Part shown: piece by piece, positions 1 to 10,846 of the stretch
Position numbering within the stretch: position 1 is the first letter of the stretch
How the letters are laid out: each line of letters starts with the position of its first letter
Program-made: the position numbers and the translations under genes
Notes under the pieces: model-generated
The model's database searches: none
Told to the model about the DNA's origin: nothing
Seen by the model: only the letters and a program-made list of their open reading frames with translations
Virus genome (UHGV): UHGV-0335014
Direction: 5' to 3' (one strand)
From: a virus
DNA: 10,846 bases

Positions 1-2706
1 ACGCTGAATGATTTTCTTGGTGCCATGACTGAGGATGATGTCCGTCCGGAGGCACTGCGCCGTTTTGAGCTGATGGTGGAAGAGGTGGCGCGTAACGCGT
101 CCGCGGTGGCACAGAACACGGCAGCCGCGAAGAAGTCAGCCGGCGATGCCGGCACATCTGCCCGTGAGGCGGCAACCCATGCGACTGATGCTGCAGGCTC
201 AGCACGCGCAGCCAGCACGTCAGCCGGACAGGCCGCTTCGTCGGCTCAGTCAGCGTCTTCCAGCGCAGGAACGGCATCAACAAAGGCCACTGAAGCGGAA
301 AAAAGTGCTGCCGCTGCAGAGTCCTCAAAAAGCGCGGCGGCCACCAGTGCCGGTGCCGCGAAAACGTCAGAAACGAATGCTGCAGCGTCACAAAAATCAG
401 CAGCCACTTCTGCATCCACTGCGACGACGAAAGCGTCAGAAGCCGCCACTTCAGCCCGGGATGCGGCGGCCTCAAAAGAGGCAGCGAAATCATCAGAAAC
501 GAACGCATCATCAAGCGCCAGTAGTGCCGCTTCCTCGGCAACGGCGGCAGCAAATTCTGCGAAGGCGGCAAAAACGTCCGAGACGAACGCCAGGTCTTCT
601 GAAACGGCAGCGGAACAGAGCGCCTCAGCTGCGGCAGACTCTGAGACAACAGCTGCATCATCGGCCCGTGAGGCGTCCATTAAGGCAGAGGAGGCAGCAG
701 TCAGTGCCACCGCCGCCGGAAAATCGGCAGAAAGCGCCGCATCATCCGCTTCAACAGCCACAACGAAGGCTGGCGAAGCCACTGAACAGGCCAGCGCAGC
801 AGCGAGGTCTGCTTCCGCAGCGAAGACATCCGAAACGAACGCGATAGCGTCGGAAACCAGCGCAGAATCCTCAAAAACGGCTGCCGCATCGTCCGCCAGT
901 TCGGCGGCGTCATCGGCATCATCGGCGTCTGCTTCAAAAGATGAGGCGACCAGACAGGCGTCAGCAGCGAGGGGCAGCGCCACGACGGCATCCACGAAGG
1001 CGACAGAGGCTGCTGGCAGTGCGGCAGCGGCAGCACAGAGCAAAAGTACGGCAGAATCCGCAGCAACGCGCGCCGAGACAGCAGCAAAACGGGCAGAGGA
1101 TATTGCATCCGCCGTGGCGCTTGAGGATGCGAGCACGACGAAAAAGGGGATAGTACAGCTCAGTAGTGCGACTAACAGCACTTCCGAGTCACTGGCGGCA
1201 ACACCAAAAGCCGTTAAGGCCGCGTATGACCTAGCTAACGGGAAATACACCGCACAGGATGCAACGACAGCACAGAAAGGGATAATCCAGCTAAGCAGCG
1301 CGACCAACAGCACGTCTGAAACGCTGGCGGCAACGCCAAAGGCAGTAAAAGCAGCCAATGACAATGCTGAGAAACGTCTGCAGAAAGATCAGAACGGTGC
1401 GGATATCCCTGGCAAAGATACCTTTACGAAAAATATTGGTGCCTGCCGTGCCTTCGGTGGGTCAGTAAGCACAACAACAGGAAACTGGACGACTGCACAG
1501 TTTATCGAGTGGCTGGATTCTCAGGGAGCATTTAACCATCCATACTGGATGTGCAAGGGTTCCTGGTCTTATGGCAATAATAAAATCATTACTGATACTG
1601 ACTGCGGTAATATTCATCTCGCCGGAGCTGTCATTGAAGTAATGGGGATAAAGTCAGCGATGACGATCCGCATTACCACACCGACCACCTCCACTGGTGG
1701 TGGAACAACTAACGCCCAGTTTACCTATATTAATCACGGAACAGATTATTCACCTGGCTGGCGAAGGGACTATAACTCCAGAAATAAGCCAACGGCATCA
1801 GAGATCGGGGCGTTACCGTCAGGTGGAACAGCAGTATCATCAGTTAATCTGGCTTCAAAAGGTCGGGTAACCGCGCTGACAGACAATACGCAGGGGGCAG
1901 CAGGTCTTGAGTTATACGAGGTGTATAACAACGGATATCCAACAGCGTATGGAAATATCATTCACCTGAAAGGGATGACAGCCGTTGGCGAAGGTGAGTT
2001 ACTCATCGGCTGGAGTGGTACAAGCGGTGCTCATGCTCCGGCATTTATTCGTTCACGACGGGATACGACCGACGCAAACTGGTCGCCGTGGGCGCAGCTT
2101 TACACCTCGGCTCATCCTCCTGCAGAGTTTTATCCAGTCGGTGCACCAATCCCGTGGCCATCAGATACCGTTCCGTCTGGTTATGCCCTGATGCAGGGGC
2201 AGACTTTTGACAAATCTGCATACCCGAAACTTGCAGTTGCTTATCCGTCAGGCGTGATCCCTGATATGCGTGGCTGGACGATTAAGGGCAAGCCCGCCAG
2301 TGGTCGGGCCGTATTATCTCAGGAACAGGACGGCATTAAATCGCACACCCACAGCGCCAGCGCATCCAGTACGGATTTGGGGACGAAAACCACATCGTCG
2401 TTTGATTACGGAACTAAATCCACAAATAACACCGGAGCACATACACACAACTTTGCTTACAACAATACTTCAGCATACGCAGAAACTCCCGGTACCGGTG
2501 GTGGAATGCATGCAACTAACACAAGAAAGACAGCAAGTAATCGCGTATTAAGCGCAGGAGCTCATACTCACACAGTAGCAATAGGTGCGCATACACATAA
2601 GCTCGCTATTGGTTCGCACACACACACCATTACCATTGCCGCTTATGGCAACGCGGAAAACACCGTAAAAAACATCGCATTTAACTATATTGTGAGGCTT
2701 GCATAA
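1..2706 (+). CDS. stf: Side tail fibre protein, 5'-truncated at the window edge (lambda Stf-like / P2 gpH-like). Ala/Ser-rich shaft with KTSETNA repeats, a lower-GC central module, and a His-rich HxH C-terminal region.
   Basis: Frame is open from nt 1 (no upstream stop), so the ATG at 25 is probably internal. From memory the translation closely matches lambda Stf (LNDFLxAMTEDD...[13 protein letters not shown] near the N-terminus; [14 protein letters not shown] motif; C-terminal PIPWPSDxVPSGY...[12 protein letters not shown]...[33 protein letters not shown] and the terminal [16 protein letters not shown]). The stop overlaps the tfa start as TAATG. Confidence 0.9.
361..842 (+). repeat. Ala/Ser-rich low-complexity shaft region of the tail fibre, with four dispersed copies of a K-T/S-SETNA coding motif
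   Basis: Near-identical 20-mers aaaacgtcagaaacgaatgc (361), aaatcatcagaaacgaacgc (488), aaaacgtccgagacgaacgc (570) and aagacatccgaaacgaacgc (823), embedded in GC-rich Ala/Ser codon repeats. Confidence 0.6.
1141..1356 (+). repeat. In-frame tandem duplication inside the tail fibre gene (two diverged copies of the segment encoding K/[28 protein letters not shown])
   Basis: Copy 1 starts at about 1141 (aaaaaggggatagtacagctcagtagtgcgactaacagc...), copy 2 at about 1273 (cagaaagggataatccagctaagcagcgcgaccaacagc...). The two encode nearly identical peptides with many synonymous nucleotide differences. Confidence 0.7.
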
Positions 2707-3305
2707 TGGCATTCAGAATGAGTGAACAACCACGAACCATAAAAATTTATAATCTGCTGGCCGGAACCAATGAATTTATTGGTGAAGGTGATGCATACAT
2801 TCCACCTCATACAGGTCTACCTGCAAATAGTACTGATATTGCTCCGCCAGATATTCCAGCTGGCTTCGTGGCTATTTTCAACAGTGATGAGGCATCGTGG
2901 CATCTTGTTGAAGACCATCGGGGTAAAACAGTTTATGACGTGGCATCAGGGGACGCGTTATTTATTTCTGAACTCGGCTCATTACCGGAAAATGTCACCT
3001 GGTTATCCCCGGAAGGGGAGTTTCGGAAGTGGAACGGCACAACGTGGGTGAAAGATGCAGAAGCAGAAAAAGTGTTCCGGATACGGGAGGCGGAAGAAAC
3101 AAAAAACAGCCTCATGCAGGTAGCCAGTGAGCATATTTCGCCACTTCAAGATGCCGTAGATTTGAATATTGCAACAGAGGAAGAAACATCGTTACTGGTG
3201 GCATGGAAGAAGTATCGAGTGCTGCTGAACCGTGTTGATACATCAAGAGCACCGGATATTGAGTGGCCAGCTTCCCCAGTGGAATCAAGGAGTAAACAAG
3301 CATAA
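2706..3305 (+). CDS. tfa: Tail fibre assembly protein (lambda Tfa / P2 gpG family chaperone)
   Basis: 199 aa beginning [44 protein letters not shown], which matches recalled lambda Tfa over nearly its whole length. Start overlaps the stf stop (translational coupling). GC-rich like stf. Confidence 0.9.
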
Positions 3306-3324
3306 AGGCTTTCATTTCAAACCA

Positions 3325-3348
3325 TTGTAGTCCAGTTTTTTGTATAGT
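3325..3348 (+). promoter_or_regulatory. Candidate sigma70-like promoter elements for the cargo gene (TTGTAG ... TATAGT)
   Basis: TATAGT (3343..3348) is a 5/6 match to the -10 consensus and TTGTAG (3325..3330) a 4/6 match to -35, but the spacer is only 12 bp, so this is weak. Placed in the 95-bp gap between the tfa stop and the likely ATG start. Confidence 0.2.
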
Positions 3349-3399
3349 ACCCTGCTCATTTCGGATGACATGTGTGATTTGGAATTTCAGGGTACCATT

Positions 3400-4578
3400 A
3401 TGAATGTTATTTCATCATTAAAACAGCTTAACAGACAGCGAAATATTAAAACAAAAAAGATAAAGACGAAGGCCAGACTGGCATTTCTAAAAATGCGATA
3501 CAGAAGGAAAACATCATTACAGCCGGATAGTTATAAAACAGTGTGCATTTTCATGCACATGCAAGCCATTGGTGACGGCATCGTTACCTCAGGGTTTATT
3601 AAACAACTTCAAAAATCCGGTATGGTGGTATATGTGATAGCACCTTCAAGAGTATCATTCCTCTTTACTGATATTGTTGGCGTGGATGCCTTTATATCTT
3701 ACGAGAAAAATAAATTTAACGAACTAAAAGCAAAGATAAAAAAACTGAATGTAGATCTTGTTGTTGACTTCTCAAATTTTGATAACACAGCGATAACCAG
3801 ATTGCAAACACTACATTTACTTAGACCTAAACACTCTATCTGTTTTAATCATCCTGCCGTAACTATTTTTGATACAAATATAATCGACAATCGTTCCATT
3901 CACACATCTGAAAGAATGAAAAAAGTTTTATCTTTACTAAAGATAAAAAATAATAATTATGCTGCAGCGCTTAATTTTGACAATAAAATATATGAGCCAG
4001 CAAATATTGTTGCAAATGAATTCAGGAAGAAAAACAAAAAATTAGTTATATTTAACCCTTATGGCTCTCAGAATAGCAGAACCTTATCTGATGAACAGAT
4101 AAACAAAGTACTAGCTTACCTTAATAACCTTAAGGGATATCACACAATAGTTTTTAATATGGGAAAACAGATTAATCATAATGGATTGGATAATGTGTCT
4201 CTATCTCCATTTTCTGATGCCGGATGTTCATTTGCATTGGTTCGCCATGCTGATTTTGTTATAACTGTAGATACTGCCATTGTACATTTAGCCAGTGCAT
4301 TAAACATTAGACAATACTGTATATATAATAACAGAATGCATGAAGGAAAATTCGAAAATAATATTGTGTGGGGGCCAAACAGCAAATTAGCGACTCAACT
4401 CACCACATCCGAACATCTAAGGTCTGAAGGGGGCGACGATATGCATAAATTCGACATAATGATCTTAATTAATGCTATCAAACAAGATTTGACAAACGAT
4501 ATACCGAATTACCACTCGGATTTAGGTTGTAAAAATAGATCCAGAAACCCAGAATTAGAAAGTAGCAATTCTTTATAA
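3400..4578 (+). CDS. AT-rich cargo gene: GT-B fold, GT9-like (ADP-heptose heptosyltransferase-like) glycosyltransferase with a Lys/Arg-rich N-terminal extension. Start is uncertain: TTG 3340 (ORF-track start), ATG 3370 or ATG 3400.
   Basis: Long ORF in a markedly AT-rich segment. Translation carries three motifs that line up with LPS heptosyltransferases WaaC/WaaF as recalled: an N-terminal IGDGIVTSGFIKQLQ (cf. IGPSWVGDxxxxxxLxxxLK), a central IFNPYGSQNSRTLSDEQ (cf. GFCPGAEFGPAKRWP) and FVITVDTAIVHLASALN (cf. IVTNDSGLMHVAAALN). An AGGG Shine-Dalgarno candidate lies 8 nt upstream of ATG 3400, and a TATAGT -10-like hexamer overlaps the TTG at 3340, which argues against that start. Confidence 0.7.
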   Translation: MNVISSLKQLNRQRNIKTKKIKTKARLAFLKMRYRRKTSLQPDSYKTVCIFMHMQAIGDGIVTSGFIKQLQKSGMVVYVIAPSRVSFLFTDIVGVDAFISYEKNKFNELKAKIKKLNVDLVVDFSNFDNTAITRLQTLHLLRPKHSICFNHPAVTIFDTNIIDNRSIHTSERMKKVLSLLKIKNNNYAAALNFDNKIYEPANIVANEFRKKNKKLVIFNPYGSQNSRTLSDEQINKVLAYLNNLKGYHTIVFNMGKQINHNGLDNVSLSPFSDAGCSFALVRHADFVITVDTAIVHLASALNIRQYCIYNNRMHEGKFENNIVWGPNSKLATQLTTSEHLRSEGGDDMHKFDIMILINAIKQDLTNDIPNYHSDLGCKNRSRNPELESSNSL

Positions 4579-4631
4579 AGTAGAAACCTCAACAGTTTTA
4601 TCAGGACCTACGATATATTATATAACAACAA

Positions 4632-4665
4632 GCCGCCCATTACCCAATATGAGGGTATTGGCGGC
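4632..4665 (-). terminator. Candidate intrinsic terminator closing the minus-strand tail operon after gpU; may also affect read-through from the plus-strand cargo gene
   Basis: Imperfect stem-loop GCCGCC-cat-TACCC / 8-nt loop / GGGTA-tt-GGCGGC (6+5 bp with a small internal loop), 9 nt beyond the U stop. On the minus strand it is followed by a T-rich tract (TTGTTGTTATATAAT). Lies in the convergent gap between the cargo gene and U. Confidence 0.35.
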
Positions 4666-4674
4666 AATGTAAAA

Positions 4675-5169
4675 TCAGAACAGTCCTTTAACTGAACTGG
4701 TCGCGCTGTTAAGAGATGATGTCACCTTATCTTTGAAGCCGGACAGCATATCGCTGAACGATGAGGATTGCAGGCGCTCCCGCAAATCCTCATCACAGCG
4801 TTCAAGGGTCAGTGAAAATTCTATCTTTTTCGCCTTACCGTAGCGATCAAACTCGGAACGGGTCGTATTCGTTCCGGTCAGGACATACATGCCGTAAATC
4901 TGCCCGACACCATCAATCAAAGGCCAGGGTCGTCCTGTATACGCCTGCGTGGTCAGCAGCGACAGCGACACTTCGCCACCTGTAATTTCAGGATAAAGCA
5001 CACCAGAAAGCACGATGCGATCATCACCTGCACCGATATACTGCCAGCTTGCTGAACGGTTAACGCGTTCATTTTTCACATGCCGCCAGCTTTTGTTTTG
5101 CTGTAACTGCTGATGCGGCAGCGTGCGCAGCTCAAAAACAAACATGCCGTAGATCATCATCATGGCCAT
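4675..5169 (-). CDS. U: Tail protein gpU-like (P2 U family), last gene of the tail operon
   Basis: 164 aa ORF immediately downstream of the tape measure gene on the same strand, which is the canonical position and size for gpU. A GAGGAG Shine-Dalgarno overlaps the T stop. Start may be the ATG at 5163 (the third Met) rather than 5169. Confidence 0.7.
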   Translation of the reverse strand: MAMMMIYGMFVFELRTLPHQQLQQNKSWRHVKNERVNRSASWQYIGAGDDRIVLSGVLYPEITGGEVSLSLLTTQAYTGRPWPLIDGVGQIYGMYVLTGTNTTRSEFDRYGKAKKIEFSLTLERCDEDLRERLQSSSFSDMLSGFKDKVTSSLNSATSSVKGLF

Positions 5170-5175
5170 GACTCC

Positions 5176-8019
5176 TCAATCTTTATCGTAAAAACTTCCA
5201 CGCCCGGCACGGGCGCGCCGTTCCATTTCTGCCCTGACCATTTCACCGACCAGTTTCGCCAGTTCGCGGGGATTCTGCGTAACAACGTTATGCAGATGAA
5301 CATGAATTTCACCGCCAAATCCGGAGGCAACAGGCTCCCGGTTACGGGAAGTTGCAGGAACTGATGCCACTGGCGATCGTATGGCCTCTGCCACCGGGCG
5401 GGAGCTGGCCGCAACAACAGGGACCAGCGCCGGAGACAGCGGAGCCGGAACCACAGGTGTGATATTAATTGCGGGGGCAGGCTTACTGACCTGCGCAATC
5501 TTCCGCTCCTGCCACTCCCCACGAACAGCAAGTGCGCGGGGCAGGTTCTTAAAGACAATATCGCCGAGGCCAATGCGTTTTTTCGTCTCATCAACCAGCT
5601 TACCTGTGTTATCAGCAATTTTGCTGAGTCTGCGTAGCGTACCGGTATTGCTGTCTGTGAGCGGTTTGTTGTCTTTGGGTTTATCACCTCCGGTGCCATT
5701 GCCATTTTCCACAGGCTTCGGCGGATTGATTTTCGCCAGGTCCCCCTGAAGCAAGGCAACCTTGTCCTGAAGAATGGCCGCACGCTGTGCGTCTTCGATT
5801 TTCTTGCGCGCCCTTTCCGCTTCATCCGGAAGCACACCGAGCTTTTCAAGTATCCACGCCAGCGTATCCAGCAACATTTTTGCAGGTGTCAGAACAAGTT
5901 GTAACGCACCGCCAAGAACGTTACCGAATATCTCGCCAGCACTGGTACATTTATCCAGCGTTTCCTTGCTGGACTCCATCGGTGACAGCAGCGATTTAAA
6001 CCAGTTAAACACCTGGCTGATCCCACTCCCGATTGCGTCAAAAACAGGACCAAACCGTTCAAAGGTTTCGCGCAACGGGGTCAGCCTTTCCATAATCCCG
6101 CTGAACACCCCGGCAAAAAATGCCCTGATGGGATCCCAGTATTTCCAGATAAGAACGGCAGCTCCGGCAAGCGCAGCCACGATAAGACCAACCGGACTGA
6201 ACAACGCCCCGATAGCGCCTCCCAGTAAAGAAACGGAACCCGTCACCATTCCCCACAGCGCAGGCAACACCCTGACGACATTCATTGACCGGGTAAGAAT
6301 GTCAAAACCAAGACGCAGGGTGGCCAGCTTCCCGTAAAGCACCCCAATAACCAGCGACAACGAGCCAATCGTTGCAGTCATTGCCAGCAGTGCACCGCCT
6401 GCAATCAGTAGCTGGCGCGTCAGTGCGGGATGGGCCTGCGCCAGCGCCGTCACCTTTGATACCACACGCGTGAGCCACTGCGTGACAGAACGCAGCGGAC
6501 CGTCAATCAGATCTGCAATGCGGATGCGCAACCCTTCCCATGCACTGCTGAGTGATTTCAGATCGCCGTCAAGGTTGTTGGCCATAACCTTTGCCGTGCG
6601 TTCAGCCTCACCGCGCGCCCCTTCAAGTTCTTTTCTCAGTTTGGGTAAGGAGCCGTCACCAGCCGCATCAACGAGGGCCATAAATGATGTGAAAGCCTCT
6701 TCTCCGGCAATGTCCTTAAAGAACGATACCCGGTCAACTTCCCCGTATTTGCGGGTAGCTTTATAAAGGTCAGCCAGCACATCCTCCATCGGGCGCATTT
6801 TGCCCCCGGCATCCGAGACAGACACGCCAAGCTCTTTCAGCGCCTCTGCTGCCGCCTTTGGCGGTGATGCCAGACGAGCCAGGCTGGCACGCATTGCCGT
6901 CCCGGCATCACTCCCTCTGATACCCATATTCGCCAGCACGCCCGCCATCGCTGCGGCCTGCTCCAGCGATATTCCCAGCTTACCCGCCACCGGACCTGCA
7001 TATTTCATGGTTTCGCCCAGCGCGCGAAGGTCAGTGTTAGTACGGGTAAACGCTGCTGTAAGCGTGTCACCGACCCGGTCCATCTGGTCAGCGGAGAGGC
7101 CGAACTGCGTCAGGATATTTGAGCCAATATCCGCCGTCTCGCCAAGGTCCATACCGCCAGCCGTTGCCATGCTCAGCACGCCCGGAAGCGCAGCCTGAAT
7201 GGCCTGCGGTGTGAAGCCAGCCATTGCAAGAAATGCCTGCCCACTGGCGGCATCGCCTGCGGTGAACTGCGTTTCAGAGCCAAGTTTTAACGCCTGCTCA
7301 CGCAGCGCCTTAAACTGCGGGCTGTTTTTGTCGATTCGCGTCAGTGCCTGAACGCGGGACATCTCTTTCCCGAACCCGATCGCAGGCTGCAAAAAACGCC
7401 CGGCAGCATAGCCGCCCGCCGCTGCCGCACCAATTGCCAGCGCACCACCTGTTTTCAGTTTTCCCGCTGTTTCCTGCGCGCGCGAATACCGCTCACGCGC
7501 CCGTGTTACACGCGCAAGCGCCTGCCGTTCGCGTTCAAGCTGGTTGTTGTACTGTTCGGTGCGTCTGATGGCCTGCTGGATGGTGTTATCGCTGCCTGTC
7601 AGGGAAATGCCGTGGCGTTTCAGCTCTCCGCCAAGCTCCCGCATTTTCTGAATTTCCCGTGTGCGCGATTCATTCAGGCGTTCAAGCCGGGTGCTTAACT
7701 GCTGCATCAGCTTTTGTTGTTTTTCGCTGAGCACTGTACCCGTGCGTTGTAACTGATTAAGGGCGTTAAGCTGGCGTCGTGCTTTCACGATGCCCGCATC
7801 CGCTTTACTGACAGCGTCACGGGCGCGCTCAAATGATCGCGCCTGACGCTCGAGATTTTTGATCGCCCCCTGCGTTCGCTGGATGGAGTCACCAAACTGC
7901 CCCATCAGGCGGCGGGCGTTTTCGGCAGGCCGGGTCAGCCTGTCAACGGCGCTGAAAGCGACCCGGATATCAAGAGTCTTCATTGTCTGCATTCCCGCTA
8001 CGAAGTGCCGCCCGCTCAC
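5176..8019 (-). CDS. T: Tail tape measure protein (P2 gpT-like)
   Basis: 947 aa. N-terminal region is rich in coiled-coil-like, charged sequence (RQLNALNQLQRTG...QQLSTRLERLNESRTREIQKMRELGGELKRHG), followed by Gly/Ala-rich and hydrophobic segments (LLIAGGALLAMTATIGSLSLVIGVLYG; GGAIGALFSPVGLIVAALAGAAVLIW), all typical of tape measure proteins. Sits between the E/E' chaperone genes and gpU. The ORF-track start is a GTG at 8019; ATGs at 7992 and 7983 are alternatives. Confidence 0.85.
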   Translation of the reverse strand: MSGRHFVAGMQTMKTLDIRVAFSAVDRLTRPAENARRLMGQFGDSIQRTQGAIKNLERQARSFERARDAVSKADAGIVKARRQLNALNQLQRTGTVLSEKQQKLMQQLSTRLERLNESRTREIQKMRELGGELKRHGISLTGSDNTIQQAIRRTEQYNNQLERERQALARVTRARERYSRAQETAGKLKTGGALAIGAAAAGGYAAGRFLQPAIGFGKEMSRVQALTRIDKNSPQFKALREQALKLGSETQFTAGDAASGQAFLAMAGFTPQAIQAALPGVLSMATAGGMDLGETADIGSNILTQFGLSADQMDRVGDTLTAAFTRTNTDLRALGETMKYAGPVAGKLGISLEQAAAMAGVLANMGIRGSDAGTAMRASLARLASPPKAAAEALKELGVSVSDAGGKMRPMEDVLADLYKATRKYGEVDRVSFFKDIAGEEAFTSFMALVDAAGDGSLPKLRKELEGARGEAERTAKVMANNLDGDLKSLSSAWEGLRIRIADLIDGPLRSVTQWLTRVVSKVTALAQAHPALTRQLLIAGGALLAMTATIGSLSLVIGVLYGKLATLRLGFDILTRSMNVVRVLPALWGMVTGSVSLLGGAIGALFSPVGLIVAALAGAAVLIWKYWDPIRAFFAGVFSGIMERLTPLRETFERFGPVFDAIGSGISQVFNWFKSLLSPMESSKETLDKCTSAGEIFGNVLGGALQLVLTPAKMLLDTLAWILEKLGVLPDEAERARKKIEDAQRAAILQDKVALLQGDLAKINPPKPVENGNGTGGDKPKDNKPLTDSNTGTLRRLSKIADNTGKLVDETKKRIGLGDIVFKNLPRALAVRGEWQERKIAQVSKPAPAINITPVVPAPLSPALVPVVAASSRPVAEAIRSPVASVPATSRNREPVASGFGGEIHVHLHNVVTQNPRELAKLVGEMVRAEMERRARAGRGSFYDKD

Positions 8020-8508
8020 GCCAGCTAACCACTTCGCCGGGCGTCATCATGAAGATTTCGGCGGGCGACCAGTTAAAAATGGCGGCAATATCCGCCACCA
8101 GATCTTCGATGTGCTCAAAGCACACCAGGGTGATTACGCTGCCGTCTCCTGCACGCTCTTCGCGCCAGAGTCTGGCTCGCTCATAAAATTTACAGCCACA
8201 GCGCACAACTGAATAAAATCGCGTGACGACATTTTTTTAATCATCACTTCATCCAGTCGTGGCGAGGTCACGCGAGGCAACAGCGTAAACATGGTATCCG
8301 CTTTCAGATTCAGCACATCAGACAGCGACAGACCACGCAGGGATCCAGCCTGCTCAATAGCCCCGGTGATCTCCACATACGTGATTTTTTCGCCACCACG
8401 CTCAATTGGTCGGGTCAGTTTTACGCCACGTTCGACAGCCATATCCTCACCTGCCGTCACATCATCCGCCACGGTGTTATTCCGGGTTTCAGTATCGATG
8501 TCTTTCAT
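7970..8508 (-). CDS. E+E': Predicted E+E' fusion product made by a programmed -1 translational frameshift at an A7 tract (minus-strand 8238..8232); E' portion ends at 7970
   Basis: The -1 frame relative to E is open from just after a TAA at 8242..8240 down to the stop at 7970. On the minus strand the E frame reads ATT AAA AAA ATG across a run of seven A (plus-strand T7 at 8232..8238). The E' reading frame overlaps the start of T. Conserved strategy in P2-like and other long-tailed phages. Confidence 0.5.
8134..8508 (-). CDS. E: Tail assembly chaperone gpE-like (P2 E family), zero-frame product
   Basis: 124 aa ORF between the tail tube and tape measure genes, with a strong AAGGAG Shine-Dalgarno 7 nt upstream of the ATG at 8508. 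Its 3' end is overlapped by a -1 frame ORF that runs on to 7970, the arrangement expected for the E/E+E' frameshifted chaperone pair of myovirus tails. Confidence 0.75.
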   Translation of the reverse strand: MKDIDTETRNNTVADDVTAGEDMAVERGVKLTRPIERGGEKITYVEITGAIEQAGSLRGLSLSDVLNLKADTMFTLLPRVTSPRLDEVMIKKMSSRDFIQLCAVAVNFMSEPDSGAKSVQETAA

Positions 8509-8563
8509 CAGTTGTCTCCTTTTCAGTCAGAGGCGACGCACTGCGCCGCCTGCATATTACTTA

Positions 8564-9076
8564 TCAGCCAAGCCCAAGCGCGGAACGGATACGGTCAGGC
8601 ACAATGTCCTTGCCGTCCTTCCGGTAGATGTGGTTCAACAGGTCGATTTCCCACAGCGGGCGATCGTTAACGCTCAGCTTGTAGTAGGTGTTTTTGACAG
8701 CGTAAGTGTGTGATGTGGCTTCGCCCTGTTTGGCTTCCCCCATATCAATTTCCGTCACACGCCCGCGCATCTCGATTTCATACAGATCGCTTTCTGCATC
8801 GGTGTAGTATTCACCCGCAAAACGCAGCAGCGTGCCGTCAATCGTGCCGCCATATTTAAGGAACAGCGCACGAACAGCTCCCCCCATGACAAAACTCGCA
8901 TCAAGCGCGGAGTCGTCCAGACCGAGATCAATACTTACCGCCCCCATCATGCCACCACCACGATAGCTGTCGGTTTTGCGCGTCAGTTTGGGCGGCGTGA
9001 CGGATGTCACTTTGCCCACTTCGTTTTCACCATCCACAAACAACGTAAAAAAGCGAAGATGTTTTGGTACAGCCAT
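8564..9076 (-). CDS. FII: Tail tube protein (P2 gpFII-like)
   Basis: 170 aa ORF directly downstream of the sheath gene, with the start overlapping the sheath stop (minus strand ..TGATG..) and a GGGAGGTG Shine-Dalgarno. Size and position match gpFII (about 172 aa in P2). Confidence 0.8.
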   Translation of the reverse strand: MAVPKHLRFFTLFVDGENEVGKVTSVTPPKLTRKTDSYRGGGMMGAVSIDLGLDDSALDASFVMGGAVRALFLKYGGTIDGTLLRFAGEYYTDAESDLYEIEMRGRVTEIDMGEAKQGEATSHTYAVKNTYYKLSVNDRPLWEIDLLNHIYRKDGKDIVPDRIRSALGLG

Positions 9077-10260
9077 CAGGCACCTCCCAGCACCGCAAAT
9101 GCGGGACCAAAGAATTCATCAGTAAACGTCTGGTAAAGCTCCATGTCTTCCAGTGGCGGAACGGGCGTATATTTGTAGCGAATACGCACACGTCCCTGAC
9201 GTAAATTCGTGGTGCCGTTATCCACCACGTCATACCAGCACTCCGCACCAATCAGTTTCCCGGCAGTAACCAGCGAATCCAGTTTTGCCCTGATGGCGCT
9301 GATAACATCCTTCACGTTCGCAGGTGTCAGTGGACTGTCGATGGTTTCAAACTGCGCTTCCGCAATTGAATCAGCCAGCACCTGTGCGGTTCGGGTATAC
9401 ACCTCAAAGATGTAGGCGTTCGTTTCCGGTGTGCGGTTGCCCCAGAAGCGGAACCCGTTGCGACGAATAATGGTCGTGATTTCTTTGTTGTTGAGGCTGT
9501 TGGCATCACTGTCTTCGGCCTGCAACGACCAGAACACATGCCTGGACATTCCCAGCACATTTTTAACCGGAACGTTGGACAGCGATTTGTGCCAGCCCTG
9601 CTCATGGTCAATGTACGCACGAAGGCCGCACGCATAAGCAGGCGCGGGGAACGTTTCGTTTTTGCCACTTTTCGGGTTGTAGGCGATGAAGTCAGGCCAT
9701 AAGAGCATCACCTCACGTTCGTTGAATTTCTGGCGGTAGGTAATCGCCTCAGCCATCGTGTTACAACCATGACATGTGGCATACACAAACGCGCGCAGTT
9801 TACCCGCAATCACGCACAGGGATTTTGTCACCGCCTCCGTGTCCAGCTCCGGCGCGGCCAGAATACGCGGACGGTATCCGATGCTTTCATCCTGCTCTGC
9901 AACAAGCAGCGCATACATCCCCGTATAGCTGCCGTCAGATTCAGAACCACCGATAACCAGTTGATCCTGCGTTTTTCCGTCTTCTTCTTTGTGTTCAGCC
10001 ACGCGAACGACGATCACCTTTGTGCTCACCTGGTCTGCGATGGCCTTAAGCGCACGATAAAGCGTCCCCGTTGTTCCGCATTTTCCCAGCACGTCATTGA
10101 CGCGGGTCAGCAATGTGGGCTTGTTCAGCGGGAACAGCTCCGCGTCCGCATCATCCGCCGTTGCCACGATACCGATAACGCTGGAATCAACATCGTTAAT
10201 CGCTGTTACCAGGTCGGTATTTTCCGTAACACGGGCACCATGAAAACGAGTTTCACTCAT
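9076..10260 (-). CDS. FI: Contractile tail sheath protein (P2 gpFI-like)
   Basis: 394 aa. Conserved blocks recalled from P2 FI and sheath homologues: AELFPLNKP, GTLYRALKAIADQ, KLRAFVYA, YRQKFNEREVMLLWPDF, HEQGWHKSLSNV, GFRFWGNRT, VYTRTAQVLAD, YKYTPVPPLE. Confidence 0.9.
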   Translation of the reverse strand: MSETRFHGARVTENTDLVTAINDVDSSVIGIVATADDADAELFPLNKPTLLTRVNDVLGKCGTTGTLYRALKAIADQVSTKVIVVRVAEHKEEDGKTQDQLVIGGSESDGSYTGMYALLVAEQDESIGYRPRILAAPELDTEAVTKSLCVIAGKLRAFVYATCHGCNTMAEAITYRQKFNEREVMLLWPDFIAYNPKSGKNETFPAPAYACGLRAYIDHEQGWHKSLSNVPVKNVLGMSRHVFWSLQAEDSDANSLNNKEITTIIRRNGFRFWGNRTPETNAYIFEVYTRTAQVLADSIAEAQFETIDSPLTPANVKDVISAIRAKLDSLVTAGKLIGAECWYDVVDNGTTNLRQGRVRIRYKYTPVPPLEDMELYQTFTDEFFGPAFAVLGGA

Positions 10261-10417
10261 AGCTTCAGCCCCTTGTATCCGTTAAATGATTCGGCAACAA
10301 TCATCACCCACCACGCGCGTAATCTCACCCCTGCGCCGTTCTCCCGCCACGGCGACAACAAAAAGCAGTAACCCCCTCCGCACGCACATGCGACCATGCC
10401 GCACAGGGAGGGAACAG

Positions 10418-10846
10418 ATGACCGACACCACCATGCAATTGCTCAGTCAGGGCACAGACCCCGTGAAAATGCCGGATTTTGATATTCTCGCGGAGGGTAA
10501 AACGCTGTCAGGCGTGGCAGAGCGCCTGATGAGCCTGTCACTGACCGACAACCGGGGATTTGAGGCGGACCAGCTCACCATCACGCTGGATGATGCAGAT
10601 GGTCAGTTGCAGCTACCGCCACGGGGCGCGCGCCTGACGGTTCTCATTGGCTGGAAAGGAGAACCGCTGACAGAAAAAGGCACTTACATTGTTGATGAAA
10701 TCGCTCACGAAGGACCGCCGGACAGGCTGACTGTTTCAGCCAGAAGCGCAGATTTTCGGGATGAATTTAACGTTAAACGTGAGGTGTCCTGGCATGATGT
10801 GACCGTTGAGCGTGTGGTATCCGCCATCGCTCATCGGTACGGTCTG
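10418..10846 (+). CDS. D: Tail protein gpD-like (late control gene D family), 3'-truncated by the window end
   Basis: ATG at 10418 preceded by GGGAGG with 7 nt spacing. The translation (...MSLSLTDNRGFEADQLTITLDDADGQLQLPPRGARLTVLIGWKGEPLTEKGTYIVDEIAHEGPPDRLTVSARSADFRDEF...SWHD) matches the conserved N-terminal region of P2 gpD as recalled. Open to the end of the window. Confidence 0.85.
   Translation, partial: MTDTTMQLLSQGTDPVKMPDFDILAEGKTLSGVAERLMSLSLTDNRGFEADQLTITLDDADGQLQLPPRGARLTVLIGWKGEPLTEKGTYIVDEIAHEGPPDRLTVSARSADFRDEFNVKREVSWHDVTVERVVSAIAHRYGL

Follow-up and report, generated by a model that had tools for sequence, protein, structure and literature searches.

A WaaU-like family 9 glycosyltransferase gene carried between the fibre and tail genes of a P88-like prophage: a candidate modifier of the lipopolysaccharide outer core

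Introduction

Why should a prophage carry a gene for a glycosyltransferase among its tail genes? The question is raised by UHGV-0335014, a viral DNA of 10,846 nucleotides analysed here over its whole length (the window), whose flanking genes mark it as a segment of a P2-family prophage, the phage being P88-like (Xuanwuvirus) and a phage of Escherichia coli. Between the tail fibre assembly gene tfa and the tail gene gpU lies an AT-rich island, and a first-pass annotation, made by a model from the letters alone, had assigned its gene to glycosyltransferase family 9 (GT9). Three roles had been put forward for the product, namely lysogenic conversion of the inner core of lipopolysaccharide (LPS), O-heptosylation of a protein, and glycosylation of nucleic acid or another target in defence or counter-defence. 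The LPS core is the receptor of many coliphages, including those of the P2 type, and the anchor point of O-antigen. LPS conversion by lysogenic phages is known mainly for O-antigen (Gtr, Oac) and, to our knowledge, conversion at the level of the core from within the cytoplasm has not been described for coliphages. We report here that the island is probably a moron of the P88-like phage, encoding an enzyme of the WaaU branch of GT9 that modifies the LPS outer core.

Results and Discussion

The island protein is a GT9 enzyme closest to WaaU

The product of the island gene matches the Pfam GT9 family (PF01075) over residues 206-312 with a score of 26.9 bits (cut-off 22; E 3.7e-6), and matches to the NCBIfam models RfaQ and HepI are weak, far under the equivalog cut-offs. 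Searches of the Protein Data Bank (PDB) sequences gave only chance matches, to hnRNP-L, with the single sequence, and a marginal match to WaaC (E 0.07) with the family profile, so that fold searches were needed. The AlphaFold model (AF2, 34-sequence alignment; pLDDT 90.1, pTM 0.86) consists of a long N-terminal helix, two Rossmann-like domains and a disordered tail of 22 residues (371-392). All of its top Foldseek matches are GT9 structures (3tov, WaaC and WaaF; E 5e-14 to 3e-11), ie the protein has a two-Rossmann GT-B fold nearest to the solved GT9 enzymes. The assignment made in the first pass is therefore supported by both profile and fold. The three motifs on which it was based, QAIGDG, FNPYGSQNSR and TVDTAIVHLASALN, are all present in the translation, and they sit on columns (G58, D59, N219, P220, R227, D291, T292 and H296) which are invariant in a homologue family of 34 clusters, collected by a word-indexed search from E. 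coli, Providencia and Orbus and extending down to 38% identity.

When the profile of this family was compared by hhalign with the four GT9 enzymes of the K-12 waa locus, the match to WaaU extended over 307 columns, the N-terminal helix included, at 99.4% probability (E 8e-22). The values were lower for WaaQ (92.6%, E 5e-7) and for WaaC (78.7%, E 1.7e-5, 48 columns only), and the comparison with WaaF was not significant (19%, E 1e-3). Full-length homology to WaaU, which BLASTP also finds (23% identity, E 3e-17), is thus stronger than that to the other K-12 GT9 paralogues. The two proteins are of similar size (357 amino acids for WaaU and 392 for the island protein) and have in common the blocks GD, H-x-(S/T)-x-R, NP-x-G, VDTA-x-VH and W-(G/S)-PN. 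The basic N-terminal helix is a further common feature; in the island protein the first 40 residues hold 14 Lys or Arg and no Asp or Glu, and the modelled helix is probably a membrane-surface anchor in both enzymes. The disordered C-terminal tail, on the other hand, sets the island protein apart. WaaC, WaaF and WaaQ (heptosyltransferases I, II and III; PDB 2H1H, 6DFE, 1PSW) share with it the catalytic Asp and the D(T/S)(G/A)xxH signature, but their sequence likeness is limited to the donor-binding motif and they have no long basic N-terminal helix. WaaU is heptosyltransferase IV: in the K-12 outer core it attaches HepIV to GlcIII, and it is at this heptose that O-antigen is joined (PMC13293308; PMC4483631).

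The open reading frame (ORF) as listed begins at a TTG at 3340 (3340-4578), but the first 45 residues from the ATG at 3400, beginning with MNVISSLKQLNRQRNIKTKKIK, are conserved in every family member and this is the start used by RefSeq, so that ATG 3400 is taken as the true one. Two lengths are found in RefSeq, 392 amino acids (WP_001100987.1) and, in some genomes (L062 9437, L107 4793), 339 from Met54 (MQAIGDG), the stretch concerned being 3400-3552 of the window. The profile of PHROG 36326, a family of 'unknown function' which the protein matches with an E of 7e-243, begins nearby, at residue 52. The long form is supported by conservation of the first 50 or so residues across the family and with WaaU.

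Mutagenesis or crystallography has shown residues D13, K192, D261 and H266 of WaaC to be important (PMC5713226; PMC3559599). D13 is the proposed catalytic base (PMC5713226), and the signature D(T/S)(G/A)xxH, which runs from D261 to H266, contacts the heptose (PMC3559599). The island protein has the equivalents of all but one of these residues (Table 1), the exception being Arg227 at the position of K192. Since Arg is reported at that position in D,D-heptosyltransferases (PMC3559599), its presence would not exclude heptose transfer, and it raises the possibility that ADP-D,D-heptose is used.

A GT9-fold transferase acting on the same layer of LPS, on the outer core or the first sugars of an O-unit, could nevertheless use a sugar other than heptose, such as N-acetylglucosamine (GlcNAc) or a hexose. 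The identity to any characterised heptosyltransferase is 14-23%, the annotation of WaaU itself is only 'putative', Arg227 is aligned to a residue that contacts the heptose, and some homologues head O-antigen clusters and not waa loci. The K-12 enzyme RfaK/WaaU was formerly regarded as a GlcNAc transferase, an activity that CAZy lists in GT9. Heptose is nonetheless the better choice: the equivalents of D261 and H266 are invariant, as is the full signature, genuine D,D-heptosyltransferases have the same Arg (PMC3559599), and the nearest structures all use ADP-heptose. We therefore regard a donor other than heptose as unlikely, though with a chance that should be kept in mind.

Homologues lie in LPS gene clusters

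A scan of genomes added Gilliamella, other Orbaceae, Citrobacter and Symbiopectobacterium to this family, which is a small one. One homologue, P0009, which is 55% identical to the island protein, is the last gene after two GT8 genes of a canonical waa locus, with the order waaL, GT9, GT4, WaaP-kinase, GT4, GT8, GT8, the homologue, waaA, coaD, GT2, mutM, rpmG, rpmB; the WaaA encoded there is 76% identical to that of E. coli. This is the position that waaU takes in K-12. In Gilliamella and Orbus the copies do not differ in G+C from the DNA around them, and their neighbours are GT8, GT9, GT2, EptA-like and MsbA-like genes. Copies of 46-47% identity, in Citrobacter and in a metagenomic relative, have asmA on one side and galF on the other, where an O-antigen cluster begins. 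The terminal position in the waaQ operon is seen only in homologues (P0009 and the Orbaceae copies), the gene of the window being on a prophage beside fibre genes. Other copies are lone or IS-flanked islands (IS, insertion sequence), and those on prophages always lie just 3' of the fibre genes on the same strand, in P88-like prophages of E. coli and, in Providencia, in no fewer than two prophage types unrelated to each other, E217-like myovirus prophages and a Mu-like prophage of Providencia rettgeri. In prophages and islands the gene has 28-33% G+C, against 40-46% in the flanks.

These contexts tie the family to LPS assembly and not to the glycosylation of protein or nucleic acid. Together with a likeness to WaaU that far exceeds that to WaaC, WaaF and WaaQ, the occurrence of homologues at the terminal outer-core position of waa loci makes the outer rather than the inner core the likely target. 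Of the three roles first proposed, conversion of LPS is by far the best supported, and it is in the choice of the inner core that the proposal has to be altered.

The constant proximity to fibre genes could be read as evidence for a protein O-heptosyltransferase of the TibC/Aah kind, the autotransporter heptosyltransferases (BAHT), acting on a beta-helical protein, either a host autotransporter adhesin or the tail fibre encoded upstream by the phage itself. TibC (PDB 4RAP) has a GT9-related GT-B fold, ADP-heptose chemistry and a similar size, and a BFVD entry from an uncultured phage bears the name 'Aah/TibC'. TibC is, however, absent from the first 50 Foldseek matches, in which the closest are WaaC, WaaF and 3tov, and from the PDB profile search even at E 10. 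The five Cys residues of the island protein include no CxxC, as had been noted in the first pass, so that the iron-binding Cys pairs are missing, and the prophage has no autotransporter gene as a partner. Homologues of 46-55% identity belong to waa and O-antigen loci that have no phage in the vicinity, and the gene is kept where fibre genes have been deleted (see below). This role, the second of the three, is improbable. Glycosylation of the tail fibre was considered as the principal function and rejected on account of the close homologues in waa loci.

An intracellular anti-phage or counter-defence factor, glycosylating DNA, a nucleotide signal or a phage protein, is a worse fit still. The Z/fun-type hotspot downstream of fibre genes does carry defence systems (bioRxiv 10.1101/2024.10.15.618418) and the N-terminus is very basic, but the basic helix is common to the LPS enzyme WaaU, no PADLOC-DB family is matched even at E 1, the close structural neighbours include no DNA-glycosyltransferase, and the chromosomal members of the family are found in LPS clusters. 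We consider this third role highly improbable.

No close homologue was found by tblastn in 50,697 deposited phage genomes (INPHARED), so that the gene is known only from prophages, including some 15 near-identical copies in IMG/VR. The sole matches in the phage genomes, at 23% identity over 81% of the protein, are in Campylobacter phages A11a and A18a (MG065691.1 142249-143205; MG065686.1), which are unannotated 174-kb records. These stretches may belong to GT9 genes that virulent phages carry and that are only distantly related. The databases already hold the gene, as a RefSeq 'glycosyltransferase family 9 protein', as PHROG 36326 and in IMG/VR, and GT9-fold proteins are annotated in uncultured phages. 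A literature search brought up no work, functional or comparative, on GT9 or WaaU-like genes borne by phages.

Carriers are almost all of the R3 core type

Of 5426 complete E. coli genomes, 49 carry the island, always on the chromosome, and in 43 of these it is at least 99% identical. To determine the core type of the carriers, a chimeric query of the island joined to an R3-type waaL was searched over the same 5426 genomes. An R3-type waaL is present in 45 of the 49 carriers and in 1364 (25%) of all genomes (odds ratio 35, Fisher p 4e-23, uncorrected for shared ancestry). Three carriers that were inspected, a clinical isolate, a pig enterotoxigenic strain (ETEC) and a human Shiga toxin-producing strain (STEC), have the cluster waaQ-G-P-I-Y-J-D-L, which is without an outer-core GT9. 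In contrast to K-12 WaaU, the prophage gene is found mostly in hosts whose core is without HepIV.

The same approach was applied to an acetyltransferase island which can occupy the same slot (see below). It was found at about 600 places, of which 66 are on plasmids, and only 5 genomes with this island are without the R3 waaL. Either cargo is thus rare in E. coli outside the R3 core type, a restriction which could stem from acceptor specificity or from the host range of the phages, two causes that this control does not tell apart.

All 49 carriers have an intact ORF of at least 95.6% identity, even where the prophage itself has decayed. In strain 165 (L001) the genes from capsid to baseplate have been lost and gpD is disrupted by IS3; in NCTC11121 (L107) an IS2 deletion runs from head completion to tfa; and in 19SZHZ869Rt (L062 9001-10542) all that remains is a tfa fragment and the GT9 gene between two IS1A copies near ynbB. 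That an intact gene has outlasted the independent decay of three prophages is a hint that it is under selection in the host. NCTC11121 and NCTC9966, where the match begins at about 3267, were at first candidates for an island joined to a different tfa; the IS2-mediated deletion accounts for these junctions, which are consequently no evidence for recombination at the tfa end.

It could be argued that the gene does nothing in E. coli and is a passenger of an exchanged tail-fibre cassette, as its foreign composition, the lack of a recognisable promoter and the recombination-prone junction would suggest. A passenger would hardly be expected to show the intact ORF in every carrier and in the decayed remnants, catalytic residues invariant over 34 clusters down to 38% identity, or a non-random association with one core type, and the chance that the gene is one is in our estimate very small.

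A number of observations weigh against the proposal that the island encodes an outer-core modifying enzyme of the lysogen. The Pfam match is modest in score and confined to the C-terminal domain. Identity to WaaU is only 23%, WaaU of K-12 is itself annotated only as 'putative ADP-heptose:LPS heptosyltransferase 4', and the Lys equivalent to WaaC K192 is replaced by Arg227. Clonality of the carriers may account for part of the R3 association; the association may also reflect the host range of the phage and not the specificity for an acceptor, because the acetyltransferase cargo is linked to R3 as well. Four of the 49 carriers are without the R3 waaL; of these AR_0128 was inspected, and its core cluster is of the R1 type. 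Finally, a scan for promoters and terminators on the + strand upstream of the gene found nothing. With no promoter consensus and no terminator after tfa, transcription of the gene might depend entirely on the late fibre operon, which would be at odds with classical lysogenic conversion.

A proposed function in the lysogen

In the proposed scheme the enzyme would be held on the cytoplasmic face of the inner membrane by its basic N-terminal helix. Its donor would be a nucleotide sugar, most likely ADP-heptose, which is made by every E. coli. With Asp59 as the predicted catalytic base, and D291 and H296 holding the sugar, a residue would be added, ahead of export by MsbA, to a terminal hexose of the growing lipid A-core. 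In about nine-tenths of carriers the acceptor would be an R3 core, a type made without any outer-core heptosyltransferase, and the product would be a side branch or cap that the host waa genes cannot make. The altered outer core is expected to mask or change the receptor of core-binding phages, and the site or efficiency of O-antigen ligation may shift. The benefit to the lysogen would then be exclusion of other phages.

The conversion of O-antigen by phages of Shigella and Salmonella, through glucosylation by GtrABC and acetylation by Oac, is a useful comparison. Those systems are likewise temperate-phage cargo of foreign composition with an expected change in LPS, phage adsorption and serology, and an acetyltransferase is an alternative or partner cargo at the GT9 slot. 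Gtr, though, comprises three membrane proteins (the flippase GtrA, the GT2 enzyme GtrB and the membrane transferase GtrC) and acts in the periplasm on O-antigen with a lipid-linked sugar, whereas the island has a single GT-B gene, whose soluble or peripheral product would use a nucleotide sugar on the cytoplasmic face, most likely on the core. The gene also follows the fibre genes and is not beside int/att. It is plausible that what is new here is an LPS-modifying lysogenic conversion at the outer core by way of a cytoplasmic GT-B enzyme; nothing in it is categorically new. If the proposal is correct, editing of the core oligosaccharide from the cytoplasmic side would be a new layer of LPS conversion.

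As the core is both a phage receptor and the anchor of O-antigen, one added sugar could change phage susceptibility, recognition by serum or antibody, and core typing. R3 is the core type of O157:H7, which has the same waaL, and some of the carriers are STEC or ETEC isolates. The R3 link is of relevance to host-range prediction for phage therapy, which is now based on the waa locus alone. The finding of this gene also suggests that prophage genes can override the outer-core types assigned from that locus.

The slot between tfa and gpU

The island stands out in composition. From the tfa stop to the gpU stop (3306-4674) G+C is 33.8%, against 53.2% in the left flank (1-3305) and 55.1% in the right (4675-10846), and the 1369-bp stretch of lowest G+C in the whole 10.8 kb begins at 3282. 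The GT9 ORF has 33.1% G+C, with 29.5% at third codon positions, and there is no further ORF of at least 70 amino acids in the island. An AT-rich single-gene cargo had been described from the letters alone, and the measurements agree with that description. So do the homology breakpoints. Matches of the fibre and tfa genes to lambdoid and other phages end at 3268-3271, and matches to P88-like phages begin at 4668, from where DNA identity to Xuanwuvirus P88, P884B11 and Citrobacter phage Shae_phiSM is 97-98.6% to the end of the window.

Comparison with related phages and prophages shows the locus to be variable, as the first-pass annotation had supposed. In P88, P884B11, Shae_phiSM and 500465-2 the slot holds an inverted alternative fibre tip, a second tfa and a DNA invertase, the usual content in sequenced relatives; PhiR44_2 has nothing but a 253-bp gap; and many E. 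coli prophages have, on the minus strand, a gene for a 190-residue hexapeptide-repeat 'serine acetyltransferase'. The suggested correspondence to the Z/fun locus of P2, a mixed-purpose hotspot with fibre swaps and DNA invertases (bioRxiv 10.1101/2024.10.15.618418), holds in that the slot lies directly downstream of G and is hyper-variable. It does not hold for the right boundary: in P88-like phages the FI-U tail block is opposite in strand to the fibre genes, so that the slot is between G and U and not, as in P2, between G and FI. The cargo, moreover, is no recognised defence system.

The acetyltransferase of the E. coli slot is 40% identical (E 5e-40) to one that is convergent with GT9 in a Providencia alcalifaciens prophage, and the two cargos have the appearance of a common set for glycan editing. 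Examples are at L063 3222-3794 (-) in the prophage of E. coli strain 8479 and at L003 11167-11733 (-) and L089 6158-6724 (-) in Providencia prophages. In the Mu-like prophage of P. rettgeri, GT9 is paired with a convergent GT2 gene (L064 8144-9118, -), followed by dinI and an integrase gene at the prophage end. From the pairings of GT9, acetyltransferase and GT2 it follows that the cargo pool of the slot consists of sugar-modifying enzymes.

The 3' end of tfa is common to these arrangements. In four independent contexts the GT9 gene starts 114-132 nucleotides past the C-terminal tfa motif D(I/V)EWP; upstream of GT9 in the Providencia prophages L005, L064 and L086 the motif is PDIEWP. The last 65 or so nucleotides of tfa are about 80% identical between E. 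coli and Providencia, and this stretch ends exactly at the left breakpoint. The gene would thus move between phages through recombination at the conserved tfa 3' end. A broader view, which we offer tentatively and rate as doubtful, is that these are tail-fibre-linked glycan-editing cassettes. A WaaU-like GT9 gene, alone or with a hexapeptide acetyltransferase or GT2 gene, would travel with the tfa 3' end between unrelated myoviruses (P2-like, Mu-like and E217-like) of E. coli and Providencia, each cassette remodelling the terminal outer core of one core type (here R3) and so masking the receptor of its own fibre, with the receptor-binding protein and the receptor-masking enzyme swapped as a unit.

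Table 1. Features of the island and its surroundings in the window
Feature	Position	Strand	Remarks
Tail fibre gene	25-2706	+	Pfam Phage_fiber_2, Collar
tfa, tail fibre assembly gene	2706-3305	+	P2 gpG-like; left flank of island; Pfam Caudo_TAP E 1e-44; G+C 46%
Conserved tfa 3' end, GATATTGAGTGGCCAG	3255-3270	+	Peptide PDIEWP; left homology breakpoint, likely recombination anchor for cargo
Cargo island, by homology breakpoints	3271-4667		34.1% G+C; no counterpart in P88, P884B11, Shae_phiSM, 500465-2, PhiR44_2
Leader between tfa stop and GT9 start	3306-3399	+	No consensus sigma-70 promoter, no terminator
Predicted stem GUACCCUG/CAGGGUAC	~3347-3395	+	Over probable ribosome-binding site; fold of 3300-3400 -26 kcal/mol, z -2.45
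GT9 glycosyltransferase gene, WaaU-like	3400-4578	+	392 amino acids; RefSeq WP_001100987.1 at 98-99.6% identity
Long basic N-terminal helix, residues 2-33	3403-3498	+	AF2 secondary structure; family-conserved; aligns with WaaU N-terminus
G58-D59	3571-3576	+	WaaC G12-D13; invariant in 34 family members; aligned with WaaC, WaaF, WaaQ, WaaU
R227	4078-4080	+	Aligned to heptose-contacting WaaC K192 (MAFFT); invariant
D291-T-A-I-V-H296	4270-4287	+	Exact match to D(T/S)(G/A)xxH; D, T and H invariant
GC-rich hairpin GCCGCC...GGCGGC	4632-4665		Between convergent GT9 gene and gpU; z -3.1 (+ strand), -2.5 (- strand)
gpU tail gene	4675-5169	-	Right flank of island; Pfam Phage_P2_GpU E 1.5e-38
Tape-measure gene	5176-8019	-	
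Tube gene	8564-9076	-	
Sheath gene	9076-10260	-	

Leader, terminator and fibre module

The stem predicted in the leader, before ATG 3400, makes translational control of the GT9 message possible. A TATAGT at 3343-3348, seen by eye, has no properly spaced -35 element. Leaders from E. coli and Providencia have no sequence in common past the end of tfa, and no conserved regulatory element was found in this comparison. Unlike the E. coli copy, the GT9 gene of the P. rettgeri Mu-like prophage has upstream of it, by eye, a terminator hairpin and a promoter of the form TTGCGC-18-TATAAT. The hairpin beyond the E. coli gene is still within the island, close to its right breakpoint at 4668, and is the probable terminator of the tail operon, since a U-rich run follows it on the minus strand.

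The fibre/tfa module (1-3271) is mosaic. It is 94-96% identical to side-tail-fibre modules of the lambdoid phages PhiR42_1, mEp460 and PhiR26_1 and of Salmonella SPF_0923, and the P88-like relative PhiR44_2 matches it only from 1288 on. The fibre cassette is therefore common to P2-like and lambda-like phages.

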